A DNA stretch of 64,000 nt from positions 10,380 to 74,379 of the forward strand of contig MHIE01000019.1 in the NCBI GenBank assembly GCA_001817345.1, written 5' to 3'. The translations under genes were made by a program, and so were the position numbers. Each line of letters begins with the position of its first letter. Position 1 is the first letter of the stretch. Below are positions 15,247 through 46,880 of the stretch, in pieces. Origin of the DNA: Candidatus Buchananbacteria bacterium RIFCSPHIGHO2_01_FULL_44_11 (GTDB taxonomy: Bacteria > Patescibacteriota > Patescibacteriia > Buchananbacterales > UBA6539). The notes below the pieces were generated by a model. That model searched no databases. It was not told the DNA's origin and was given only the letters and a program-made list of their open reading frames with translations.

Positions 15247-15403
15247 GTCATTGCGAACCCCGCCGTTTCTGTTTATCTATAGTCAGACGGAAACGGCGAG
15301 GTGAAGCAATCTGACGCGAAGCGTCATCCCGAGGGAACCGAGGGATCTGTCTTGCCAAGGGGATTGCTTCGTCTCCGCCAGATGGCGGATCCTCGCAATG
15401 ACT
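15247..15403. repeat. MITE-like palindromic element (gtcattgcga...tcgcaatgac family), ORF-less copy
   Basis: Outer IR gtcattgcga / tcgcaatgac and inner IR gaagcaatc / gattgcttc. The 75-bp core is identical to 46790-46865. Same terminal and inner IRs as the GIY-YIG element at 27980-28371. Confidence 0.6.
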
Positions 15404-17177: not shown

Positions 17178-17309
17178 ATTGACAAAGACTTAATTCTATG
17201 TTATTTTACTATATTCAATCCTAAAATACAAGATTGAAAAAATAGGTTCTTTGACCCAGTCAACCACTTGAAATCTTGAAAAATCCAAATTCAAACAAGG
17301 AGAATGCGG

Positions 17310-18416
17310 ATGAAACTCATCGCGGTTGTAATGAAAGATGCCGGTTCTTTTAATGCGGTCATGCCGGCAGGAGAACTGCTTTCGGCCAATGGCGGACACG
17401 ACTATGGTTGCGTTTACTTCGCCTCCGGCGTCGCCGCCACTAAATTGAAAGAGCGAGACATCCCCTATCAGAATGCCGACGAATTCGTCGGCGATTCCTT
17501 TGACCTCGTCCTCTGCGGCACGTCTTCAACCGCCGACGGCGATTTCTTGGAACGCGATATCTGCCGGAAAGCCACGGCCAAAGGTATTCCGATCGTCGCA
17601 ATCAGCGACGTCTGGATGAGCGCCCTGCGGCTCAAAGATGACGCAGTTAAGCTGACGGTGGTCACCAGTATCGATCAGCAAAGCACGTCATTGCTCCGGC
17701 AAGTCATGCCCGGCGTCAAAATCGTGACGACCGGCAATCCGGCTTTTGATCAATGGTTCCATGGTCAAAACCAATACACGACCAACCGCTCGGCCATCCG
17801 AGAGAGACTCGGCCTGCACCCCAAAGAAAAGCTGGTCTGCTTTTTCGGCGGCTATGGCGACCAAAGCGCCGATATCCTCCAGTTACTCTGCGACACGCTG
17901 GGAGACATCGGCAGCCCATATTTAGCTTTCGCTGTGCGCAACCATCCGGCGATTCTCCAAAACCCCAAGTGGGCCAAAGATAAGGCCAAAATTGAAGCCA
18001 CCCTGGCCGATTTCTTTGGCCGAACGGTTGACACCGCTGAATATAAAACCGGAGAATCGCTCCTGCCGGCCGCCGACCTCTGTGTGGCCAATTGGTCAAC
18101 CTTACTGCTCCAAGCCACTCACCTGGTCTCACTTCACGGTTCGCCGATGTCTTTGCACATCATCCTGCCTGAGTATGATCAGGGCTGGATTGCCAACCAG
18201 TTCTGCGGCCTGAGTAACACCGTGCCGGCCGTCACATTAGGTGCGGCCAAAGCAGTCTACCAGTACAGTCCGGCCGATGTGGCCACCGCCATCTCCAACC
18301 TCTTATTCAATGAAAATACGAGGCACGAGATAACCCGCGCCGCCAAAAGGGACTTTCGACTCGACGGCCGGTCAACCGAACGCGTCGCCGCCGAAGTCAT
18401 CCAGCTCCTCAACTGA
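17310..18416 (+). CDS. Hypothetical protein, GC-rich (~58% GC) gene, possible GT-B/Rossmann two-domain fold
   Basis: Start taken at second ATG (AGGAG 7 nt upstream). Strongly elevated GC, producing many spurious antisense ORFs. No recognisable family motif. Confidence 0.5.
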   Translation: MKLIAVVMKDAGSFNAVMPAGELLSANGGHDYGCVYFASGVAATKLKERDIPYQNADEFVGDSFDLVLCGTSSTADGDFLERDICRKATAKGIPIVAISDVWMSALRLKDDAVKLTVVTSIDQQSTSLLRQVMPGVKIVTTGNPAFDQWFHGQNQYTTNRSAIRERLGLHPKEKLVCFFGGYGDQSADILQLLCDTLGDIGSPYLAFAVRNHPAILQNPKWAKDKAKIEATLADFFGRTVDTAEYKTGESLLPAADLCVANWSTLLLQATHLVSLHGSPMSLHIILPEYDQGWIANQFCGLSNTVPAVTLGAAKAVYQYSPADVATAISNLLFNENTRHEITRAAKRDFRLDGRSTERVAAEVIQLLN

Positions 18417-27516: not shown

Positions 27517-27600
27517 ACGGGCTATCTAGTCTCACTAATAAATACCAAAAAAGCCGCTGGGATAACCAACGGCTCAGTCAAAAATATCCAATCCGATTAA

Positions 27601-27984
27601 CTAATCAAGCGTCTTTCTCAATTGTAGTGAATTTAGAATAATAAAAGTCAAAGTACCAATACTGTCAACGCCAACATCAAGTAAACTGGCCGACCGACCC
27701 TTGATAAAACTCTGATGCCACTCATCGGTGGCGGCGGACAAAACAGCTAAAAACAAAGCTAAGACTAATCGCTTTTTAGAGCTTAAGCGATACTGACCCA
27801 AGGCCCGAAACAACAAAAAAGTCAAAACAAAATACTCAGCCATATGAGCGATTTTGCGAAAAATCAAATCCCAGAATGGCTCAAGCTCTGATTTTAAATC
27901 CGGCTGGTGGGAAAAATAATAAATCACCCCAAGCCATAAAATTACCACCAGCCAATTAATGAATTGTTTTGTTCTTAGTGTCAT
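27601..27984 (-). CDS. VanZ-like membrane protein
   Basis: Four TM segments and DEWHQSF...R motif. The N-terminus overlaps the terminal IR of the adjacent GIY-YIG element (ATG supplied by cgcaATGACac). Confidence 0.55.
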   Translation of the reverse strand: MTLRTKQFINWLVVILWLGVIYYFSHQPDLKSELEPFWDLIFRKIAHMAEYFVLTFLLFRALGQYRLSSKKRLVLALFLAVLSAATDEWHQSFIKGRSASLLDVGVDSIGTLTFIILNSLQLRKTLD

Positions 27985-28371
27985 TGCGAGGAGTCCTAGT
28001 TGTGCCAAGTTGACGAAGCAATCTAGCTAATCCCAGTCGCCGCTCAAATCTTTCCAATCAGGATTACTAGAATTAATTAAATTAATCTTATCCTGCCGAG
28101 AACCACCTTTAATCTGCTTTTCCCTAGAAATAGCGGCGTTAATATCATTACATTCTTCAAAATAGACTAGCTTGTTGACATTGTATTTACTCGTAAAACC
28201 TTCGATCAATTTATTTTTATGTTCGTAGATTCGTCTTGCCAAATCATTAGTCACGCCAGCATAAGTCACCGTATTACCTTTGTTAGTTAACAAATAAACG
28301 TAATAGTTCCTTGCACCCATATAATAACTAGATTGCTTCGTCGCTCCTTGGGTCGCTCCTCGCAATGACAC
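27980..28371 (-). mobile_element. TIR-bounded element carrying a GIY-YIG nuclease gene, putative autonomous member of the gtcattgcgag MITE family
   Basis: Outer IR gtcattgcgagga / tcctcgcaatgac and perfect 15-bp inner IR gacgaagcaatctag / ctagattgcttcgtc exactly bracket the GIY-YIG ORF. It is inserted with 0 nt spacing between the VanZ-like gene and the GT4 gene. Confidence 0.55.
28027..28323 (-). CDS. GIY-YIG nuclease, YhbQ/UPF0213-like
   Basis: YVYLLTNKGNTVTYAGVTNDLARRIYEHK GIY-YIG motif and KLVYFEE...REKQIKGGSR. The ORF-track N-terminal extension (GTG at 28371) is read-through of the TIR; probable start at MGARNYYVY. Confidence 0.7.
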   Translation of the reverse strand, partial: YMGARNYYVYLLTNKGNTVTYAGVTNDLARRIYEHKNKLIEGFTSKYNVNKLVYFEECNDINAAISREKQIKGGSRQDKINLINSSNPDWKDLSGDWD

Positions 28372-29526
28372 TTAAGTTAGGCTTCTATAAAGTGCGTCAA
28401 GCTGCTGGCCAATTTTATCCCAGTCGTAATTTTGTTCAACTTTATTTCTGCCTTCCAGGCCAAACTGCTTAGCGACGCCCTGATTGACCAATAAGTAATT
28501 GATCTTGGTGGCTAAGTCATCCGGATCCTTGGGTTTGACTAAATAACCGTTGATTTTATCACTAACCACGCTGCGGACACCGGCTAAATTGGTGGCGACC
28601 ACCGGTTTAGCGCAACTCATGCCTTCGACTAAGGTCAAACCAAACGCTTCAGACTTATCAATGGAGGGCAAAACTACCACGTCAGCTAAATTGTAATACT
28701 GGGGTAAGTCAGAGTTAGCGACGTACCCGGTAAAAATTGTTTTGTAATCAATCAAAAGCTGACCGGCTAAGTCCGCATAATGTTTCTTTAGTTCCCCCGC
28801 TCCGACAACGACTAACTTCCATTTATAGGCCGCTTGTTTGAGCCGGCTCATCGCTTCAATCAAATACTCCACACCCTTAAAATAGTGGGCTTTATCCAAG
28901 CCACCGACAAATAAGACCACCGATTCGTCCAGTTCAATCTGATGCCGACTTAACAGCTCGGGATTTTTGGGGCTGGGTAAAAATTTTTGGCTATCAACGC
29001 CATTAGGCACTTCGATAAACTTTTGCGGACTTTTAGTCAAAAGACCGGCGATATTAGAATGCTGAGCATAGTCTAAAGACGTGACAATGACTTTATCAGC
29101 CCGGCGAATTATCCGCGGCAAAATGATTCTATTATGAACCCCAAAAAAAAATTTAAGCAGTCCCTGACCGACAACGTCCATGTGATAATGCAAAACAATT
29201 TTTGCCCCTGACTTTTTCAATTTTTTAGCGTGCAGCCAAATCAATTCCGCCCCGCCAAAATAAGGGTAATGCAGATGAATAATTTCAAAACCTTTAAGCA
29301 AACCGGCCAACCCGGGTGTAAAAGCGGCATTGCCGTATTTAATCAAGGGCTTCAGCCGCCTGATATTTAAATCCGGCAGCTCTTCTTGTTTAATCGGAGC
29401 ATATTCCGGAGTAAAAATAGTGACCTGATGGCCAAGCTTAATCAAAGCCTTGGCGTTATAAGCCGCCACATTACCAATACCGCCGGCATAGGGCGGAAAA
29501 GTTGAAGTAACAATAGCGATTTTCAT
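28372..29526 (-). CDS. Glycosyltransferase family 4
   Basis: MKIAIVTSTFPPYAGGIGNV N-terminus; C-terminal GT-B motifs. Confidence 0.8.
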   Translation of the reverse strand: MKIAIVTSTFPPYAGGIGNVAAYNAKALIKLGHQVTIFTPEYAPIKQEELPDLNIRRLKPLIKYGNAAFTPGLAGLLKGFEIIHLHYPYFGGAELIWLHAKKLKKSGAKIVLHYHMDVVGQGLLKFFFGVHNRIILPRIIRRADKVIVTSLDYAQHSNIAGLLTKSPQKFIEVPNGVDSQKFLPSPKNPELLSRHQIELDESVVLFVGGLDKAHYFKGVEYLIEAMSRLKQAAYKWKLVVVGAGELKKHYADLAGQLLIDYKTIFTGYVANSDLPQYYNLADVVVLPSIDKSEAFGLTLVEGMSCAKPVVATNLAGVRSVVSDKINGYLVKPKDPDDLATKINYLLVNQGVAKQFGLEGRNKVEQNYDWDKIGQQLDALYRSLT

Positions 29527-29689
29527 ACCCAGTAGTGAAACTTTGATTTAATAATTATATCGCCGGCAATAATAGCTAAATAAGGTTTACTCTACTATAA
29601 TAATTTTGCCTAGTAGTCTTTAACCGCCCGCTGTGGCGGGCGGTATTATCAAATTTTCACTACTGGGCATACCAATATATTAACATTTT

Positions 29690-30703
29690 TTAAAACAGTT
29701 GACCACCAATATTCCTGATCCGATTCACTAACTTTTTAGCGTTACCATGGCTTAGTAGCCCAAGATACGACTGAACCGTGTCAATATTCCCCTCTTTCAT
29801 TTGAACATTTCGGAGCATGCGCCTTTTTGTCGCCGTTCGAAGTATGCGATGGTCAAAAAAGTGTACCCACCCCAAAAAATCCACACCAGAGGTAATAGTT
29901 TTAATAAATAGCTTATCAGGATGTAATTCGAGCCGCAATTTGTCCATTAAAAAATTTCTCACCACCAGTAGAGTATTCTGAAGCCATATTTTATCATCAG
30001 ACAAAAAAACAAAATCATCTGCATAACGGATATAATATTTGACTTTAAGCTGGTGTTTTACGAACTGATCGAATTCATTCATGTAAACATTAACCAGTAG
30101 TTGTGAAGTTAGGTTGCCGAGTGGCAAGCCCCTGCCTTTTTCAGTTGAATTAAAACTTGAAACAATTTTGAAGATAAGCCAACGGATATCAACATCCGAA
30201 ATGTAACAACTAATGATTTCAAACAACACTGCTTGATTAATTGAAGCAAAAAATTTTTTAATGTCACACTTTAACACCCACACTGTTCGGGTATGGTTAA
30301 ATGATGCCTTATAGGCAAAATTTCGAAACTGACTAATTGCTTTATGGGTGCCTTTATCAAGACGGCACGAGTACGAATCGGCAATAAAAGTTTTATCGAA
30401 GAACGGATATAAAATTCTATAAATAGCATGATGTAGCAGTCTATCTCGTACGCTGGCTTTATGAATATTCCTTGGTTTGGGATCAGAAATATTAAACGCC
30501 TGGTATGGCGAGTGTTGATAGGTTTTATTTGCTAAATCTTGATAAAGTGTTAAGATATTAGCCATCAAATTCAATTCAAATTGTTGCACGTCTTTGTGTG
30601 ACCGCTTGCCGCACAAAAATTCCTTCCAGGCCTTGAGTAAATTCTCAGCCGAAATAATATCTTCGTACTCATTAGTAAATTGAAGCCTTCCCATATATGC
30701 CAT
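29690..30703 (-). CDS. Diversity-generating retroelement reverse transcriptase
   Basis: RT motifs PKPRNIHKASVRDRLLHHA, LPLGNLTSQLLVNVYM (the [IL]GxxxSQ variant typical of DGR RTs) and IRYADDFVFL (YxDD). 337 aa with no maturase/X domain. TR/VR pair lies adjacent. Confidence 0.85.
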   Translation of the reverse strand: MAYMGRLQFTNEYEDIISAENLLKAWKEFLCGKRSHKDVQQFELNLMANILTLYQDLANKTYQHSPYQAFNISDPKPRNIHKASVRDRLLHHAIYRILYPFFDKTFIADSYSCRLDKGTHKAISQFRNFAYKASFNHTRTVWVLKCDIKKFFASINQAVLFEIISCYISDVDIRWLIFKIVSSFNSTEKGRGLPLGNLTSQLLVNVYMNEFDQFVKHQLKVKYYIRYADDFVFLSDDKIWLQNTLLVVRNFLMDKLRLELHPDKLFIKTITSGVDFLGWVHFFDHRILRTATKRRMLRNVQMKEGNIDTVQSYLGLLSHGNAKKLVNRIRNIGGQLF

Positions 30704-30727
30704 ATTCTACCCCCCCACCCAGCGATT

Positions 30728-31090
30728 TTGCCAGTGTTACAAAAAATAAAAAGTGCTTATCTACTATGGTACGGCTACTACCAAACACTACCAAAAACCC
30801 AGCGCTATTCACTGGGTCAAAGAATTGATACGTTATTTATAGAGATTATCGAAGCGGTTGCCACCGCCAGTTTTTTGGTACGGCAGGAAAAAATACCCTA
30901 TGTTCGACGAGCCATCCAAAAACTCGACACGCTCAAAATACTGTTGATGGTATTGTGGGAAACAAAGACGTTAGACAATAAAAAATACATAGCTCTGTCG
31001 GCGCCACTAGATGAAATCGGTAAAATGCTAGGCGGCTGGAACGGCCAATTAGTAAAACAAAACTCCCTCGAAAGGCCGAGGGAGAAATAA
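30728..31090 (+). CDS. Avd-like accessory variability determinant (four-helix bundle)
   Basis: Basic ~120 aa protein. C-terminal ...LDEIGKMLGGWNGQLVKQN parallels Bordetella bAvd ...IAEVGRILGSWIARVNRK. It lies between RT and TR. No in-frame ATG; TTG (30728) or GTG (30734) start assumed. ORF-track start 30680 overlaps the RT start. Confidence 0.55.
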   Translation: MPVLQKIKSAYLLWYGYYQTLPKTQRYSLGQRIDTLFIEIIEAVATASFLVRQEKIPYVRRAIQKLDTLKILLMVLWETKTLDNKKYIALSAPLDEIGKMLGGWNGQLVKQNSLERPREK

Positions 31091-31098
31091 AGTCAGTG

Positions 31099-31232
31099 GC
31101 TGGGACGAGGAACAGGAATCCGTTCTCACGATTCCACCTGTCGTCGGGGTTGCCGTTGAATGTGTTCAACCAGCGACCATCGTCGTTACGGTTCAGACCG
31201 AGCAGGTTCAGGTTGCCGTTCGAGTCGGTAAT
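31099..31232 (-). repeat. DGR template repeat (TR)
   Basis: 134-bp homolog of 31591-31724. Carries A (on - strand) at all 22 mismatch positions. Encodes Asn(AAC)-rich ...SNGNLNLLGLNRNDDGRWLNTFNGNPDDRWNRENGFLFLVPA. Confidence 0.85.
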
Positions 31233-31471
31233 ATGTACAGTATGTCATCTATGCCACCGCCCCTTGAGTACTCTTAGGGTTGTATCGTATTTGGCATCGT
31301 AATGCCCTAACACACTGTACCAAGTAACTTCGTTTTTTAGCACCACATCCTACGCTATCTCAATCCGCCAACCGGCGGACGGAGATACTCTGAGATATAT
31401 GGATACTGGATTCGGTAGCGGAAAGCCTTAACTATCCGCATATTCACCTACTACCATTTTTAGTATAACAG

Positions 31472-31514
31472 AAAATAAATCACCCCGCATCTTCATACAA
31501 GACAGATGCGGGGC
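31472..31514 (-). terminator. GC-rich hairpin plus T-run 70-110 nt downstream of VR (terminator and/or DGR homing-associated stem-loop)
   Basis: ccccgcatc...gatgcgggg 9-bp stem followed on - strand by atttatttt. Confidence 0.4.
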
Positions 31515-31580
31515 GTTGTTCGGAAAGTCCAAGGACTAAATCCAAGGGTCAAAAAGACCCAAGAACCCAAGTCCAAAGGA

Positions 31581-32205
31581 CTAGTTACTTGCTGGGACGA
31601 GGAACAGGAATCCGCGCCCACGACTCCACCCGCCGTCGGGGCGGCCGTCGAAAGTGTTCAACCAGCGACCACCGACGCAACGGCGCAGACCGAGCAGGCT
31701 CAGGAAGCCGCACGAGACGGAAACCGGCTGGTGCATGACGATCAGAGCCCACAGCCCCATCTGTTCGAGGTCTTCGTCTGAGAACATCTCGCGCACATAC
31801 GGTGCCAACTCGACCGAGGGGTCAAGATAGCCGCGCTTGGCCGCCTCAACCCTGATATTCTCGTTGGTGCGTTTGTCGTCCTCGAACTCGTCGCCCATGA
31901 TAAGCGCAAGCTTGTAGGCCTTGCCGTCGGTGGCGACGAACTCTTTACCGCGAAGCAGTTCCTGGGCGTAGTCGTCGACACGATCACCCTGGACTTCGAG
32001 ATCGGTGATGTGCTGGTCGCCTGAACGACCGTTGGTCGTGACCTCAAAGGTCTTGGGTACGCCGAACGGATTTTCTCCGCGCAGGAATCGCTTCAAGCGA
32101 CGGAGCCACATCGTGCCTTTCGGGCCAGCGAGTTTGTCCTCGATATCTTTTCTCGGTCCCTGAGTGTCAGAGAGCGAGAGGTTGCCGAGCATACCTTGCG
32201 ACATG
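31581..32205 (-). CDS. DGR target (variable) protein, GC-rich, 208 aa
   Basis: VR is the last ~45 codons (...SCGFLSLLGLRRCVGGRWLNTFDGRPDGGWSRGRGFLFLVPASN*). AGGAGG RBS 6 nt upstream of ATG at 32205 and extended -10 TGgCATAAT. The ORF-track N-terminal extension into 32288 is not supported. Confidence 0.7.
31591..31724 (-). repeat. DGR variable repeat (VR) at 3' end of target gene
   Basis: 22 of 22 differences from TR fall at TR adenines. It ends 7 nt before the stop codon. Confidence 0.85.
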
Positions 32206-32283
32206 GTCAGTCCTCCTCTTCTTTCATTGAGATTATGCCAGCGGACTACTAGGTAGTCATAGCCAGAAAACACTGATCCACAT

Positions 32284-32365
32284 GTCATTGCGAGCGAAGC
32301 GAAGCAATCTCTTTGGTTGTAGATTGCTTCGTCCCCCGACGTAAAGTCGGGGTCCTCGCAATGAC
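32284..32365. repeat. Minimal (82 bp) member of the gtcattgcgag MITE family
   Basis: gtcattgcgag-cgaagcgaagcaatct...agattgcttcgtcc...cctcgcaatgac; the inner IRs are nearly juxtaposed. Located just upstream of the DGR target promoter. Confidence 0.5.
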
Positions 32366-32412
32366 ACGAAAAATGGGTGGCTTTTGGCTATGACTACTGT
32401 TTTTACAAGCTT

Positions 32413-32441
32413 GCCCCGTTAGAAATTTATTTCTAAACGGG
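32413..32441. repeat. Perfect 13-bp-stem palindrome ccccgttagaaat-tt-atttctaacgggg
   Basis: Seen directly; the same arms flank a 92-bp insert at 33685-33802. Confidence 0.4.
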
Positions 32442-32542
32442 GTAAATATATAATTAAAAAGAACTAATGACATAGTATACCATAACTAGACAATTATGTC
32501 AAATAAGCGGCCAAAATTAAAATATGGTAAAATGTAATTAAA

Positions 32543-33232
32543 GTGATTATGGCAAAAGAAATAACCCAGGACATCGAAAAATTCATAGAAAAACAAAGCG
32601 AACCGATGGCCGGCAGTCTGCACTTGATTGGCGCCATTCTAGCCATTGCCGCCCTGGTGATTTTGGTTAAGGCGGCCGCCGAAACCGGCGAACCGAAAAA
32701 AATTATCAGCTTCACCATTTTTGGCGTTGGTTTAATCTTGGTTTACGTTTCCAGCACGCTTTATCATCTCCTGTCTTTGGAACCGAAAACCAAAAGCGTT
32801 TTAAGGCGCCTGGATCATTCCATGATTTACCTTTTAATCGCCGGCAGTTATACCCCGATTTGTTTAGTCGCTTTACCCGGCAGCTGGGGCTGGAGTTTAC
32901 TTGGTGTAGTCTGGGGACTGGCATTGATCGGCATTTTAATTAAATCAAAAAATATCCAAATTAAAGCCTGGCTGTCCACAATCGTTTATCTAGCCATGGG
33001 CTGGCTAATTTTGATCGCTTTTGTCCCCCTCTTTAAAGTTTTGTCAACCGCCGGGATATTCTGGTTATTTGCCGGCGGCATCGCTTACACCTCCGGCACG
33101 ATATTTTTTGGCTTGGGAAAAATTCTGCCCCGAAAGAGTAAATTTTGGATGCATGAAATTTGGCATTTGTTTGTCATGGCCGGCAGTTTCAGCCATTTTT
33201 GGCTGATGCTCCAATACGTCGTTTATCTCTAA
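32543..33232 (+). CDS. Hemolysin III / PAQR family membrane protein
   Basis: Seven TM segments with DHSMIYLLIAGSYTP and HEIWHLFV motifs. Confidence 0.8.
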   Translation: MIMAKEITQDIEKFIEKQSEPMAGSLHLIGAILAIAALVILVKAAAETGEPKKIISFTIFGVGLILVYVSSTLYHLLSLEPKTKSVLRRLDHSMIYLLIAGSYTPICLVALPGSWGWSLLGVVWGLALIGILIKSKNIQIKAWLSTIVYLAMGWLILIAFVPLFKVLSTAGIFWLFAGGIAYTSGTIFFGLGKILPRKSKFWMHEIWHLFVMAGSFSHFWLMLQYVVYL

Positions 33233-33261
33233 AATCTAAACCCCTAGCAAGGGGCTTCTTC

Positions 33262-33338
33262 CTGTCATTCCGCACTTGATGCGGAATCTAGGGTTAATCC
33301 GTACAAACCCTGGATTCCCGCTTACGCGGGAATGACAC
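33262..33338. repeat. Cluster of three hairpins bounded by tgtcattcc / ggaatgaca
   Basis: ttccgcacttgatgcggaa, tagggtt...aaccctgg and ttcccgcttacgcgggaa stems. The first hairpin is a variant of the 18519-18545 hairpin (ttccggacttgatccggaa). Confidence 0.4.
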
Positions 33339-33420
33339 GGGGTGGGAATGACAAGAATAGCGTAAAAATATTAAAGCGATAGGCTAAAGTCTAGAATTTA
33401 TAACCCATCAAAAAGGGTCT

Positions 33421-33591
33421 ATGACTAATCAAAAAGAACAAAACGGCTGCTTTAATTGCGGCAATCAAAGACAAAATTTTATCCCCGGCTCAGTTGATGA
33501 CCATTGTCCCTATTGCGGCTTTAAAGAAGGCTGCTGCAATTATTACGAACCGATCGTTGAAAAAATCGAAATCGAATATGAATCACGTTAG
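33421..33591 (+). CDS. Small zinc-ribbon protein (56 aa; CxxC...CxxC...CC), not in ORF track (<60 aa)
   Basis: MTNQKEQNGCFNCGNQRQNFIPGSVDDHCPYCGFKEGCCNYYEPIVEKIEIEYESR. Confidence 0.3.
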   Translation: MTNQKEQNGCFNCGNQRQNFIPGSVDDHCPYCGFKEGCCNYYEPIVEKIEIEYESR

Positions 33592-33684
33592 AGGCCGCCG
33601 TCACCACCAGCCGGAAAGTAATAATAACTTGTAATTTTAATATAAGAATATTAATGCAGTAATGCGGTTAACGACTGCAACCTG

Positions 33685-33802
33685 CCCCGTTAGAAATTGT
33701 GGGTGCATAAAAAAATATTTATGAAAGTTGAGACTATTATAAAATTTATTACGGCCCTACCGCGACGAAAATCAGTCAGTCTACGTCTTATTTCTAACGG
33801 GG
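33685..33802. repeat. ccccgttagaaat / atttctaacgggg inverted repeats separated by 92 bp
   Basis: Same 13-bp arms as the compact palindrome at 32413-32441. Confidence 0.3.
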
Positions 33803-33817
33803 CCTGCCTCTAACGGG

Positions 33818-34765
33818 ATGAATAAAGACTTTTGGCAAAATCTCAAAAAACCGATTATCGCTTTGGCGCCGATGGACGGCTACACTGACAGCGCTTTCCG
33901 TCAAATTTGCAAAGAGGTTAATCCGGCAATTATTGTTTTTACCGAATTCACTTCCGCCGACGGCTTAAGCCATGGCGCCAAAACCCTGAAAGAAAAAATT
34001 GCCTTCGTACCCAGTGAGCAACCCATCATTGTTCAACTGTTTGGTAAAGAACCGCAAAAATTTGTTGAAGCGGTTAAATATTGTGAAGCGGCCGGTTTTG
34101 CCGGCATTGACATTAACATGGGTTGCCCGGCCAGAAAAGTCATCCGATCCGAACACGGCCTGGCTTTGCGCAAAGATCCAGAAACCGCTTTCCGGATTGT
34201 TGAAGCCGTGGCGAAAAACACTAAATTGCCCGTCTCGGTTAAAACCCGGCTCGGTTGGGACGGCAATTTGGACTTAGACAGTTTTGCCAAAGGCATTGAA
34301 AATGCCGGCGCTAATTTAATTACCATTCACGCCCGGTTTTTTAAAGAAGTCCGGTTTGGGCCGATTGACTACAACCCCCTTTACGAATTGAAAAGTAAAA
34401 TCAAAATTCCAATTATTGTTAACGGCGGCATTACCTCGCTGACCGATGGCCTAGAAAAAATCGGCAATTTGGACGGCCTGATGATTGGCCGGGCGGCTTT
34501 GGGCAATCCTTGGGTTTTTAACCTTAAACCAGTGACAAATTTCAGTGAAAAAATACCGGTCATTAAAAGGCACGCCGCTTACATGGTTAAAACTAAAGGG
34601 GCGAAGGCGGGAATTCTCCAGATGCGCAAACACCTTCTGGACTATGTGAGCGCCATGCCCCAAGCTAAAAATTTCCGGTCTCAACTGGCGAGAGTCAATA
34701 ATTTAAAAGAAATTGACGGCGTTTTAGCCGAGATCAAAACCAGTCTAGCCGCTGAATCGGCTTAA
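33818..34765 (+). CDS. dus: tRNA-dihydrouridine synthase
   Basis: IIALAPMDGYTDSAFRQICKE, GIDINMGCPARKV and IPIIVNGGI TIM-barrel Dus motifs. Confidence 0.85.
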   Translation: MNKDFWQNLKKPIIALAPMDGYTDSAFRQICKEVNPAIIVFTEFTSADGLSHGAKTLKEKIAFVPSEQPIIVQLFGKEPQKFVEAVKYCEAAGFAGIDINMGCPARKVIRSEHGLALRKDPETAFRIVEAVAKNTKLPVSVKTRLGWDGNLDLDSFAKGIENAGANLITIHARFFKEVRFGPIDYNPLYELKSKIKIPIIVNGGITSLTDGLEKIGNLDGLMIGRAALGNPWVFNLKPVTNFSEKIPVIKRHAAYMVKTKGAKAGILQMRKHLLDYVSAMPQAKNFRSQLARVNNLKEIDGVLAEIKTSLAAESA

Positions 34766-45783: not shown

Positions 45784-46006
45784 TATTTTAATTTTAAAAT
45801 TTAACAGCTGGAACTCTAATCCTAGCCTAATATAATAAAATAATCATACCAAAAAATCGGTTTTCCGGCAAGGTAAAAAATGATTAACCTTGACTTATTC
45901 AACCACTTATAATATAGTCTAAAAGCAGCAAACGCAGTACAAAGCGATTGCTGGCTGAAGCAATAATACATTGCTACAGATTGTTCTCTAAACAAAGGAG
46001 AGTTAC

Positions 46007-46592
46007 GATGAGGCCGAATGGTGAAAAAACAGACGTCGGTACTATCGTTTCAGAAGAAACAGTGTTCGGTGACGGATTCCTTCCGGTGATCAAACGCGTG
46101 GTCCGGACGCCGGATGGCCAGACGCGAGAACCACAGCTGCTGTGGGACCGCACCGGCAAAGAATTCGTTGTCGCCGTTGCCATCGGGCCGGACGACAAAT
46201 TTGTCCTCGTCAAAGAGCCAAAGTATGGTCAGATGGAATACTCCGTCGGACCGGCGATCGGCGCCATTAAGCAAGGAGAGGACATAATCAACGCGGCCGG
46301 TCGGGTGTTACTGGCAGAAACCGGCTACAAGGTAGAAAGGTGGTATCACTTGATTACCGGAACCGTGATTGAAATTCCGGACAAGAGCGACGGCGGCGGC
46401 CACCACCTTATGATCGGCATAAACGCGGTCAAAAAAAGAGAGCCGGAGAGTGGCTGCCAAGTTATATTGGCTTCCCGCCAGGCAGTCGAGGATATGCTCT
46501 GGGGAAGAAGTTCACTACGGATTGACCGGGCAATGGGAATCGCCGCTATGTTTTTGGCGATACAATTCCTGGCAGACCGCAATTTGTGTTAA
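46007..46592 (+). CDS. NUDIX hydrolase-like protein, GC-rich (~54%) gene
   Basis: GAIKQGEDIINAAGRVLLAETGY is a degenerate Nudix box. AAGGAG RBS before the ATG at 46007 (the ORF-track start at 45948 is probably too far upstream). Confidence 0.55.
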
Positions 46593-46751: not shown

Positions 46752-46880
46752 GTCATTGCGAGGAGCGAACGGCAGTGAGTGACGAAGCAATCTGACGCGA
46801 AGCGTCATCCCGAGGGAACCGAGGGATCTGTCTTGCCAAGGGGATTGCTTCGTCCCGATTCCGTCGGGACTCGCAATGAC
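46752..46880. repeat. MITE-like gtcattgcgag family element, ORF-less copy
   Basis: Same termini and identical 75-bp core as 15247-15403. Internal hairpin gtcccgattccgtcgggac. Confidence 0.6.

Follow-up and report, generated by a model that had tools for sequence, protein, structure and literature searches.

Diversity-generating retroelements (DGRs) are, to our knowledge, the sole natural system of targeted protein hypermutation known in prokaryotes. Bacteria of the candidate phyla radiation (CPR) carry many of them, and Paul and colleagues are said to have given the first survey of CPR DGRs in 2017. The described systems considered here are the DGR of Bordetella phage BPP-1, the CPR DGRs of clade 2, the DGR proteins of the C-type lectin (CLec) kind with solved structures, and the putatively intracellular targets of cyanobacteria and multicellular bacteria. 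Among cellular DGRs, most targets were described by Roux et al. 2021 (PMC8144416) as membrane-anchored binders; the CPR targets were reported there without membrane or known domains, their true non-membrane status was already treated as an open question, and their variable domain was suspected to be a new C-Lec variant. The present analysis concerns a stretch of 64,000 nucleotides from Candidatus Buchananbacteria bacterium RIFCSPHIGHO2_01_FULL_44_11 (contig MHIE01000019.1, positions 10,380 to 74,379; hereafter the window) and, within it, a DGR cassette together with the gene encoding its diversified target.

Overall, we consider it probable that the protein is a canonical DGR target belonging to a CPR family, built on a CLec-like scaffold and acting as a soluble cytoplasmic binder in recognition.

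The retroelement cassette

The locus is a complete canonical adenine-mutagenesis DGR on a Candidatus Buchananbacteria (CPR/Patescibacteria) chromosome, arranged in the order target with its variable repeat (VR), template repeat (TR), avd on the antisense strand, and reverse transcriptase (RT) (Table 1). The TR and VR share 82% identity with 26 differences, of which 23 fall on TR adenines (A>G 12, A>T 8, A>C 3) and the remaining three lie in the last 9 nt. Within the mutagenised part of the VR, all 23 mismatches are situated at TR adenines, and 23 of the 34 TR adenines are altered. Residues 162–197 are specified in the TR by codons of which 19 contain adenine; 11 of these are AAC or AAT, which can reach no stop codon, and the coding capacity of the TR amounts to approximately 1e17 amino-acid combinations. 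The VR terminates 2 nt into the target stop codon, and the 24-nt stretch near its 3′ end, identical in the TR, is a candidate initiation of mutagenic homing (IMH) element by analogy with the BPP-1 model. The predicted Avd protein, whose start was taken from 118-aa gene calls in sibling contigs, matched PF22296 bAvd (9.9e-11, 42.5 bits, cut-off 40), NF033474 (1.2e-19, 70.6 bits, under the cut-off of 80), and phrog_3206 (2.7e-14), while the RT translation carries the LGNLTSQ and YADD motifs. The starts of avd (30734) and RT (30703) are divergent and about 30 nt apart, and neither a second target nor a second TR was found in the window. The initial annotation had called the gene a DGR target, and this identification was borne out by the adenine-confined TR/VR mismatches, the recognition of Avd and RT by family models, and the AAC-codon design of the TR.

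The sequence anatomy is what is observed in the window, and the steps of a mechanism can be taken from the BPP-1 model. Transcription of the TR would appear to end at a conserved hairpin and U-run right after it; RT and Avd would copy this RNA into adenine-randomised cDNA, and the cDNA would then replace the VR, rewriting some 20 residues in C-terminal strands and loops that would form a ligand-binding surface. The target would be translated without a Sec, Tat, or lipoprotein signal, and its exchangeable N-terminal module probably addresses the protein or docks it to partners. The hairpin followed by TTTTGTTT was present 7–10 nt past the TR in seven of seven loci (the window, L001, L014, L019, L024, L025, and L026), where the stem sequences differ and the pairing is kept. 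It resembles a terminator for the TR RNA or a component of a priming RNA; in the first case, the TR would not share a transcript with the RT. Wu et al. (PMC5758913) describe a hairpin downstream of the IMH in BPP-1, to which the small GC hairpin after the target corresponds in position. A G-run (GGGTGGGGGGG, RT strand) at 30709–30719, shortly before the RT start, shows a 1–3 nt deletion or a T>G change among sibling assemblies, which could reflect phase variation of RT/avd expression or a homopolymer assembly error.

When sibling assemblies were compared, diversification was not visible in the window population at the consensus level, though mutagenic homing has happened. The protein sequence of the VR was identical in six assemblies; at the DNA level, no differences were found in four siblings and one synonymous change in a fifth. 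The TR was identical in all four siblings that cover it, and the RT showed 0–2 differences in 990 nt. Outside the VR, the target carried 2–6 single-nucleotide polymorphisms (SNPs) among the siblings and five differing amino-acid positions, and the flanking genes (approximately 6 kb) had zero SNPs in the best-matched contigs. A static VR and TR beside a changing remainder of the gene, together with the many relatives that have no RT, avd, or TR nearby, would fit a fossil copy whose function is fixed and which the DGR no longer diversifies. We regard this as possible, though not the favoured explanation: the RT, avd, and TR are intact, and the RT and TR barely differ between siblings; 23 of the 34 adenines differ between VR and TR, so mutagenic homing occurred; the VRs of two assemblies of the sister P0026 lineage (L001 versus L016) differ at adenine sites; and consensus assemblies can conceal minority VR variants. 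Within the non-VR target, six SNPs, four of them non-synonymous, are grouped in 77 nt (31899–31975), a pattern that hints at a recombined tract or at selection acting on the gene beyond the VR. Elsewhere, the VanZ/GIY-YIG region (27600–28371) diverges by 2.5–2.9% between these same, otherwise near-identical assemblies.

The variable protein and its family

According to the initial annotation, the target consisted of an unrecognised N-terminal domain of about 160 aa followed by a VR tail. The family profile and the AlphaFold model instead delimit a single alpha/beta domain of about 155 aa that includes the VR and follows a helical module of about 48 aa. Because the profile match covers positions 52–205 in most of the 150 relatives listed, preceded by 0–100 unrelated residues, the conserved unit includes the VR and is not an N-terminal domain with a tail. 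The full protein was modelled with a predicted local distance difference test (pLDDT) score of 85, with residues 49–207 above 90; when these residues were modelled alone, the pLDDT was 94.9 and the predicted template modelling score 0.90. The two helices of the N-terminal module (17–26 and 30–41) were predicted at a pLDDT of 41–77. The domain is composed of a beta strand, two helices, a strand, three helices, and four strands, and the VR spans the end of strand 153–162, strands 168–176 and 179–186, and the loop before the last strand (197–202). Nearly invariant across the family are an M-H-(E/Q)-P motif just before the VR, E132, and R138. A conserved G-F-x-F strand closes the VR and resembles the GFR that ends FGE-type VRs.

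The target had no match in Pfam, NCBIfam, or PADLOC, a single non-significant match in PHROGs (E = 0.19), and chance-level matches only (E about 1) among Protein Data Bank (PDB) sequences, where two profiles gave no related chain. A Pfam scan of 147 relatives returned isolated non-significant matches with no recurring family and neither FGE-sulfatase nor DUF1566, and hhalign against BPP-1 Mtd gave a probability of 0.4%. The description of the target as having no recognised family therefore holds, and sequence methods provide no tie to CLec, FGE-sulfatase, or DUF1566. When the predicted structure was compared with the PDB, the only folds matched across most of the domain (113–149 aligned columns) were C-type lectin domains, namely rhodocetin, the fourth carbohydrate-recognition domain (CRD4) of the mannose receptor, BDCA2, CLEC4D, and the C-terminal domain of Bd2740, all non-significant with template modelling (TM) scores of 0.3–0.44. 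The succession of strands and helices would allow a beta-alpha-beta-alpha-beta4 arrangement. A clear CLec or FGE-sulfatase fold, which would have made this a conventional target, was thus not recovered, the C-type lectin matches being weak; most likely, the scaffold is related at great divergence to the C-type-lectin fold of other DGR targets, a relationship that is not established here.

A first homologue search retrieved 33 relatives of 200–220 aa from Patescibacteria, unnamed or annotated as hypothetical protein. When the family profile was run against 1.84 billion cluster representatives, 2709 proteins were obtained at E ≤ 1e-3 and 233 at E ≤ 1e-30, corresponding to a family of at least 2700 clusters at 50% identity. 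All members for which the source gave an organism name were Patescibacteria, with one exception: L013 (CAZQLY010000001.1; 61% identity) is part of a contig of 199 kb that bears the name 'uncultured Gammaproteobacteria bacterium', a label that was not checked, and represents either a mislabelled bin or a member outside the CPR. Family-wide, the hypervariable columns coincide with the TR adenine codons, with an entropy of 2.47 bits versus 0.58 in the other, nearly invariant VR columns (p = 1e-7). The N-terminal module was present in 41 of 179 members, the rest having other short N-termini, including different helical ones. It matched nothing in any library, and a search for it elsewhere yielded eight short or fragmentary proteins with other C-termini, which were uninformative. 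One relative, P0033, combines the same module and a related core with no VR-like C-terminus.

Regarding cellular location, no 15-aa window of the target reaches a mean Kyte–Doolittle hydropathy of 1.9, a heuristic criterion distinct from SignalP. This agrees with the earlier description of a short protein without signal peptide or transmembrane segment, and no non-canonical secretion signal was detected either. A Tat signal at the RR pair (residues 34–35) was considered and rejected, as no hydrophobic stretch follows. By the same heuristic, signal-like, lipobox- or lipoprotein-like, or membrane-like N-termini occur in five of 179 members, so that about 97% have none. Most likely, as judged from the sequence, the target is a soluble cytoplasmic binding module or is exported by an unknown route, and its role is probably in phage–host or cell–cell recognition rather than that of a classical secreted adhesin. 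The initial annotation saw here a possible different use of diversification; Roux et al. 2021 (PMC8144416) had already asked the same of CPR targets collectively, and such a use is neither shown nor excluded by our data.

An alternative is a surface or secreted adhesin of an episymbiont that leaves the cell by a route outside the standard signal rules and attaches to host cells or particles. The precedent of membrane-anchored cellular targets (PMC8144416) speaks for it, as do the five members in which a signal-, lipobox-, or membrane-like N-terminus replaces the module, suggesting that the N-terminus is an addressing module. We nevertheless find it rather doubtful, given the roughly 97% of members with no hydrophobic N-terminus, the absence of any conserved adjoining export gene across about 15 contexts, and an N-terminal module unmatched in all libraries.

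The genomic contexts of the family were varied. The layout of target, TR, antisense avd, and RT recurs in L001/L016, L019, L025, and L026; in L024, target, TR, and RT are present and avd was not recognised, and in L014, the target and TR are accompanied by a partial avd match only. At roughly half of the loci inspected, RT, avd, and TR were all missing within 5–6 kb, so that the family is not strictly a DGR accessory. Examples with none of these within 6 kb are a phage-borne copy (L029, 4994–5662) and two core-chromosome copies (L030, 6001–6672; L031, 6001–6624).

Several members reside in phage-like elements. P0002, which at 69% identity is the nearest relative beyond the species itself, has its own TR and RT and is accompanied by a large terminase (phrog_38, 1e-82), a small terminase, a ParB-methylase, and two serine recombinases. 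L025 (P0005) shows a weak terminase match and a ParB-methylase, L026 (P0021) a CHAP-domain protein upstream of the member, and L027 (P0032) ERF and ParB genes nearby, while L029 is an IMG/VR phage contig with DnaB, Erf-like, terminase, and major head protein genes whose member has neither RT nor TR. These contexts would suit a protein of the phage virion, for example a receptor-binding tip or a decoration protein, in which case the cassette would be a remnant of a CPR prophage or a domesticated part of one. The missing export signal would then be trivial, since the assembly of virion proteins takes place in the cytoplasm, and the N-terminal module would attach the protein to the particle. This possibility appears unlikely in view of the remaining contexts. 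In the phage-like contigs, the gene adjoins replication, recombination, or packaging genes (ParB, recombinase, Erf, terminase), and no tail module was recognisable at the gene; as tail modules are unannotated in these phages, this placement is a weak indicator for the family as a whole. No conserved partner gene was seen. The window target lies between HlyIII and glycosyltransferase genes with no phage genes within 4 kb, and other chromosomal members are likewise situated between housekeeping genes (methylase/ATP synthase operon in L001, pheT/gyrB in L031, a glycosyltransferase cluster in L030), the window, L001, L005, L030, and L031 having no phage genes within 4–6 kb. Furthermore, no family match was obtained in 50,697 deposited phage genomes, and the best PHROG match is the non-significant one given above. 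Two of three IMG/VR scans gave no match, and the scans of genome and metagenome collections returned few loci (5 and 7) because they used exact peptide patterns. On indirect evidence, we consider a soluble intracellular binder engaged in recognition, or one exported by an unrecognised route, to be more probable than either a virion component or an adhesin of the classical kind.

The GC content of the target had been noted as far above that of its surroundings, with an equally GC-rich TR and an AT-rich RT, and measurement agreed: 59.8% in the target (58.3% outside the VR, 65.2% in the VR), 56.0% in the TR, and 36.8% in the RT, versus 42.5% in the window. At third codon positions (GC3), the target reaches 0.736 versus 0.465 ± 0.066 in 54 long open reading frames (ORFs) of the window (z = 4.1, the window maximum), and its codon usage resembles that of an organism of about 60% GC. 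The second positions (GC2) are host-like (0.37 vs. 0.34). Amino-acid composition and sense-strand adenine loss could be excluded as causes because, at third positions, C is raised as well as G and A is lowered as well as T, while GC2 is host-like; in the non-VR part, the sense strand even has more A than T. The same excess, about +10 points on average, was found in 16 of 17 independent loci encoding proteins 36–69% identical, the exception being a host of 57% GC. DGR-less copies in core positions, such as those of L030 and L031, are still GC-rich (58.7 vs. 45.0 and 59.1 vs. 45.1), and so are the copies on AT-rich phage contigs. RT and avd, for their part, track the host from 29% to 55% GC (RT 29% in L026, 37% in the window, 54% in L019).

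The GC excess had initially been taken as a possible pointer to another lineage or to phage. Atypical GC of the whole DGR has been used as evidence of DGR transfer (Wu et al., PMC5758913), and the GC3 deviation and codon usage of our target would agree with recent acquisition of target and TR from a GC-rich lineage or phage. We judge this very improbable: the excess is shared by phage-borne and core-chromosome copies alike, including the orphan between pheT and gyrB, RT and avd have the GC content of the host within these very cassettes, and recent transfer in every lineage is implausible, so the GC data largely refute it as a general cause. GC richness is a gene-specific trait of the family and not a mark of recent transfer. 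Conjecturally, the SNP cluster described above would be in keeping with GC-biased conversion at a hot spot of recombination. No report of such a split within a cassette, with target and TR rich and RT and avd host-like, was found in the literature searched, and the split argues against taking atypical GC of a DGR target as a sign of recent transfer. Two other genes of the window are GC outliers unrelated to the target family, at 17304–18416 (+; 55.9% GC, GC3 0.67) and 45948–46592 (+; 52.4%, GC3 0.59).

Several observations weigh against the soluble, CLec-like recognition binder that we prefer. The best Foldseek matches to lectins reach E values of only 0.34–0.57 with TM scores of at most 0.44, the solved DGR variable proteins are absent from the top 50 matches, and the Mtd and Pfam comparisons given above provided no link. 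The copy in the window may be quiescent or fixed, its VR being identical in six assemblies in which the rest of the gene is polymorphic, and around half of the loci have no retroelement genes nearby. The five relatives with signal- or lipoprotein-like N-termini indicate that the domain is able to work extracellularly, and the placement in the cytoplasm draws solely on the absence of recognisable signals. A bolder proposal, to which we give little credence, is that the family is a cytoplasmic hypervariable binder of CPR bacteria and their phages on a non-CLec scaffold, taking part in intracellular phage–host conflict as a sensor or anti-defence binder that exchangeable N-terminal modules would dock, with a constant GC3 excess arising from a gene-specific process, such as recombination-driven GC-biased conversion, tied to the way in which these genes are renewed. 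The locus offers a clean and tractable case: the protein has 207 aa and a structure predicted with confidence, its variable residues form a defined set of about 20, the family available for comparison is huge, and copies exist with the retroelement, without it, and in phage-like elements.

Gene boundaries and neighbouring features

The features of the cassette and its vicinity are collected in Table 1. The target ORF runs on the minus strand from an ATG at 32204 to a stop codon at 31581–31583, which corrects the 208 aa and the end at 32205 previously assigned, the latter lying one base too far. It is identical (100%) to OGY45488.1 of Candidatus Buchananbacteria. An alternative in-frame start at 32288 (235 aa), used by some pipelines, was rejected: the extension would span the promoter, the ribosome-binding site, and a palindromic element, and homologues begin with MSxGMLG. 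The expression signals had been called strong. Both AGGAGG and TGgCATAAT are present, the latter with a −35-like ATGACT 17 nt upstream, but the spacing of AGGAGG is 7 nt, not 6, and promoter-like sites are no commoner than in shuffled sequence (3 found vs. 2.1 expected). The terminator-like hairpin 3′ of the target was read directly from the sequence, as its loop of 11 nt caused the hairpin scan to omit it.

Table 1. Coordinates of the DGR cassette, the target, and adjacent sequence features in the window.
Feature	Coordinates	Strand	Description	Basis
Target (variable protein) gene	31581..32204	-	207 aa + stop	ORF and translation; 33 homologues of 200–220 aa
N-terminal module	32061..32204	-	residues 1–48 (MLG...W...FLRxENP[WF]); two predicted lower-confidence helices	
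Conserved alpha/beta domain	31584..32060	-	residues 49–207, ~155 aa, includes VR	family profile and AlphaFold
Variable repeat (VR)	31583..31723	-	141 nt, last part of target; mutagenised part 31615–31721 (residues 162–197)	
Invariant 24-nt stretch	31591..31614	-	3′ end of VR, identical in TR, then few non-adenine differences	IMH-like by position
Small GC hairpin	31546..31560	-	GGGTC-TTTTT-GACCC, ~20 nt past target stop codon	hairpin scan
Terminator-like hairpin	31472..31513	-	CCCCGCATCT / AGATGCGGGG + T-run, 3′ of target	read from sequence
Template repeat (TR)	31091..31231	-	single other copy in window; 492 nt downstream of VR	
Post-TR hairpin	31053..31084	-	hairpin + TTTTGTTT, immediately 3′ of TR; overlaps 3′ end of convergent avd	
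avd accessory gene	30734..31090	+	118 aa; opposite strand to target, TR, and RT	
DGR reverse transcriptase (RT)	29690..30703	-	337 aa, intact	RVT_1 5.3e-21; phrog_1423 6.6e-105
Target expression signals	32212..32260	-	−35-like ATGACT 32260–32255; TG-CATAAT 32240–32232; AGGAGG 32217–32212	consensus matches only
Palindromic repeat element	32253..32397	.	directly upstream of target; outer arm is the source of the −35-like hexamer	inverted repeat I3

The palindromic element upstream of the target has a fold energy of −78.8 kcal/mol (z = −10.7). Elements with the same GTCATTGCGAG termini occupy four sites in the window (15247–15402, 27980–28369, 32253–32397, and 46752–46880), their eight matches forming four inverted pairs versus 0.5 matches expected. 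One pair flanks the GIY-YIG ORF at 28027–28371, and another comes after the GC-rich gene at 45948–46592. The outer arm also lies upstream of the target in another lineage, where it is translated as SGYDY (P0023). A second palindromic motif (GTCATTCC ... GGAATGAC) is located at 33262–33345, between the HlyIII gene and a small CxxC ORF. An Rfam scan of 29500–33900 gave a chance-level match only.

Comparison with described systems

When compared to the BPP-1 DGR (mtd-VR/avd/TR/brt), the cassette of the window shares the adenine-specific TR-to-VR changes, the VR at the 3′ end of the target, the AAC-rich TR, Avd, the RT motifs [LIV]GxxxSQ and YxDD, the invariant GC-rich VR end, and the hairpin after the VR. 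The gene order differs, being target, TR, avd on the opposite strand, and RT in the window, and mtd, avd, TR, and brt on one strand in BPP-1. In addition, our cassette is chromosomal in a CPR bacterium, bears the conserved hairpin and U-run directly after the TR, and encodes a target of 207 aa with no detectable similarity to Mtd.

With the CLec DGR proteins of solved structure (Mtd, TvpA, TaqVP, and the archaeal AvpA) and the FGE-sulfatase/DUF1566 types, the target shares a compact scaffold, variable residues on C-terminal strands and loops, and AAC-type codons. In contrast to them, its domain gives no sequence or profile match, contains extra helices, and carries the M-H-(E/Q)-P motif before the VR.

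Vallota-Eastman et al. 2020 (PMC7517822) and Dore et al. 2024 (PMC10907252) describe putatively intracellular DGR targets of cyanobacteria and multicellular bacteria, with which ours has in common the absence of an export signal and the possibility that diversified binding takes place inside the cell. Unlike those targets, the window protein has a 48-aa N-terminal module, no effector domain, and no PADLOC match. The cyanobacterial and multicellular-bacterial proteins are reportedly large, comprise several domains, serve in regulation or conflict, and have VR domains recognisable as C-Lec/FGE. If our protein does act intracellularly, DGR diversification in the CPR would have more in common with recognition inside the cell than with the variation of adhesins.

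Finally, the CPR DGRs of clade 2 (Roux et al. 2021, PMC8144416) share with the window a CPR host, a cellular DGR, and a target with no membrane segment, signal peptide, or recognisable domain. The target is a member of this CPR class and nothing contradicts its membership, as judged from host, context, and target features. A CPR target class with no export signal or domain was thus already known, and the question of its location had been recognised. Relative to the literature searched, several points appear new: where the domain is bounded, a confident model for which no structural neighbour was significant, how large the family is, the phage-like and DGR-less orphan copies, the static VR in this population, and the family-wide GC split.

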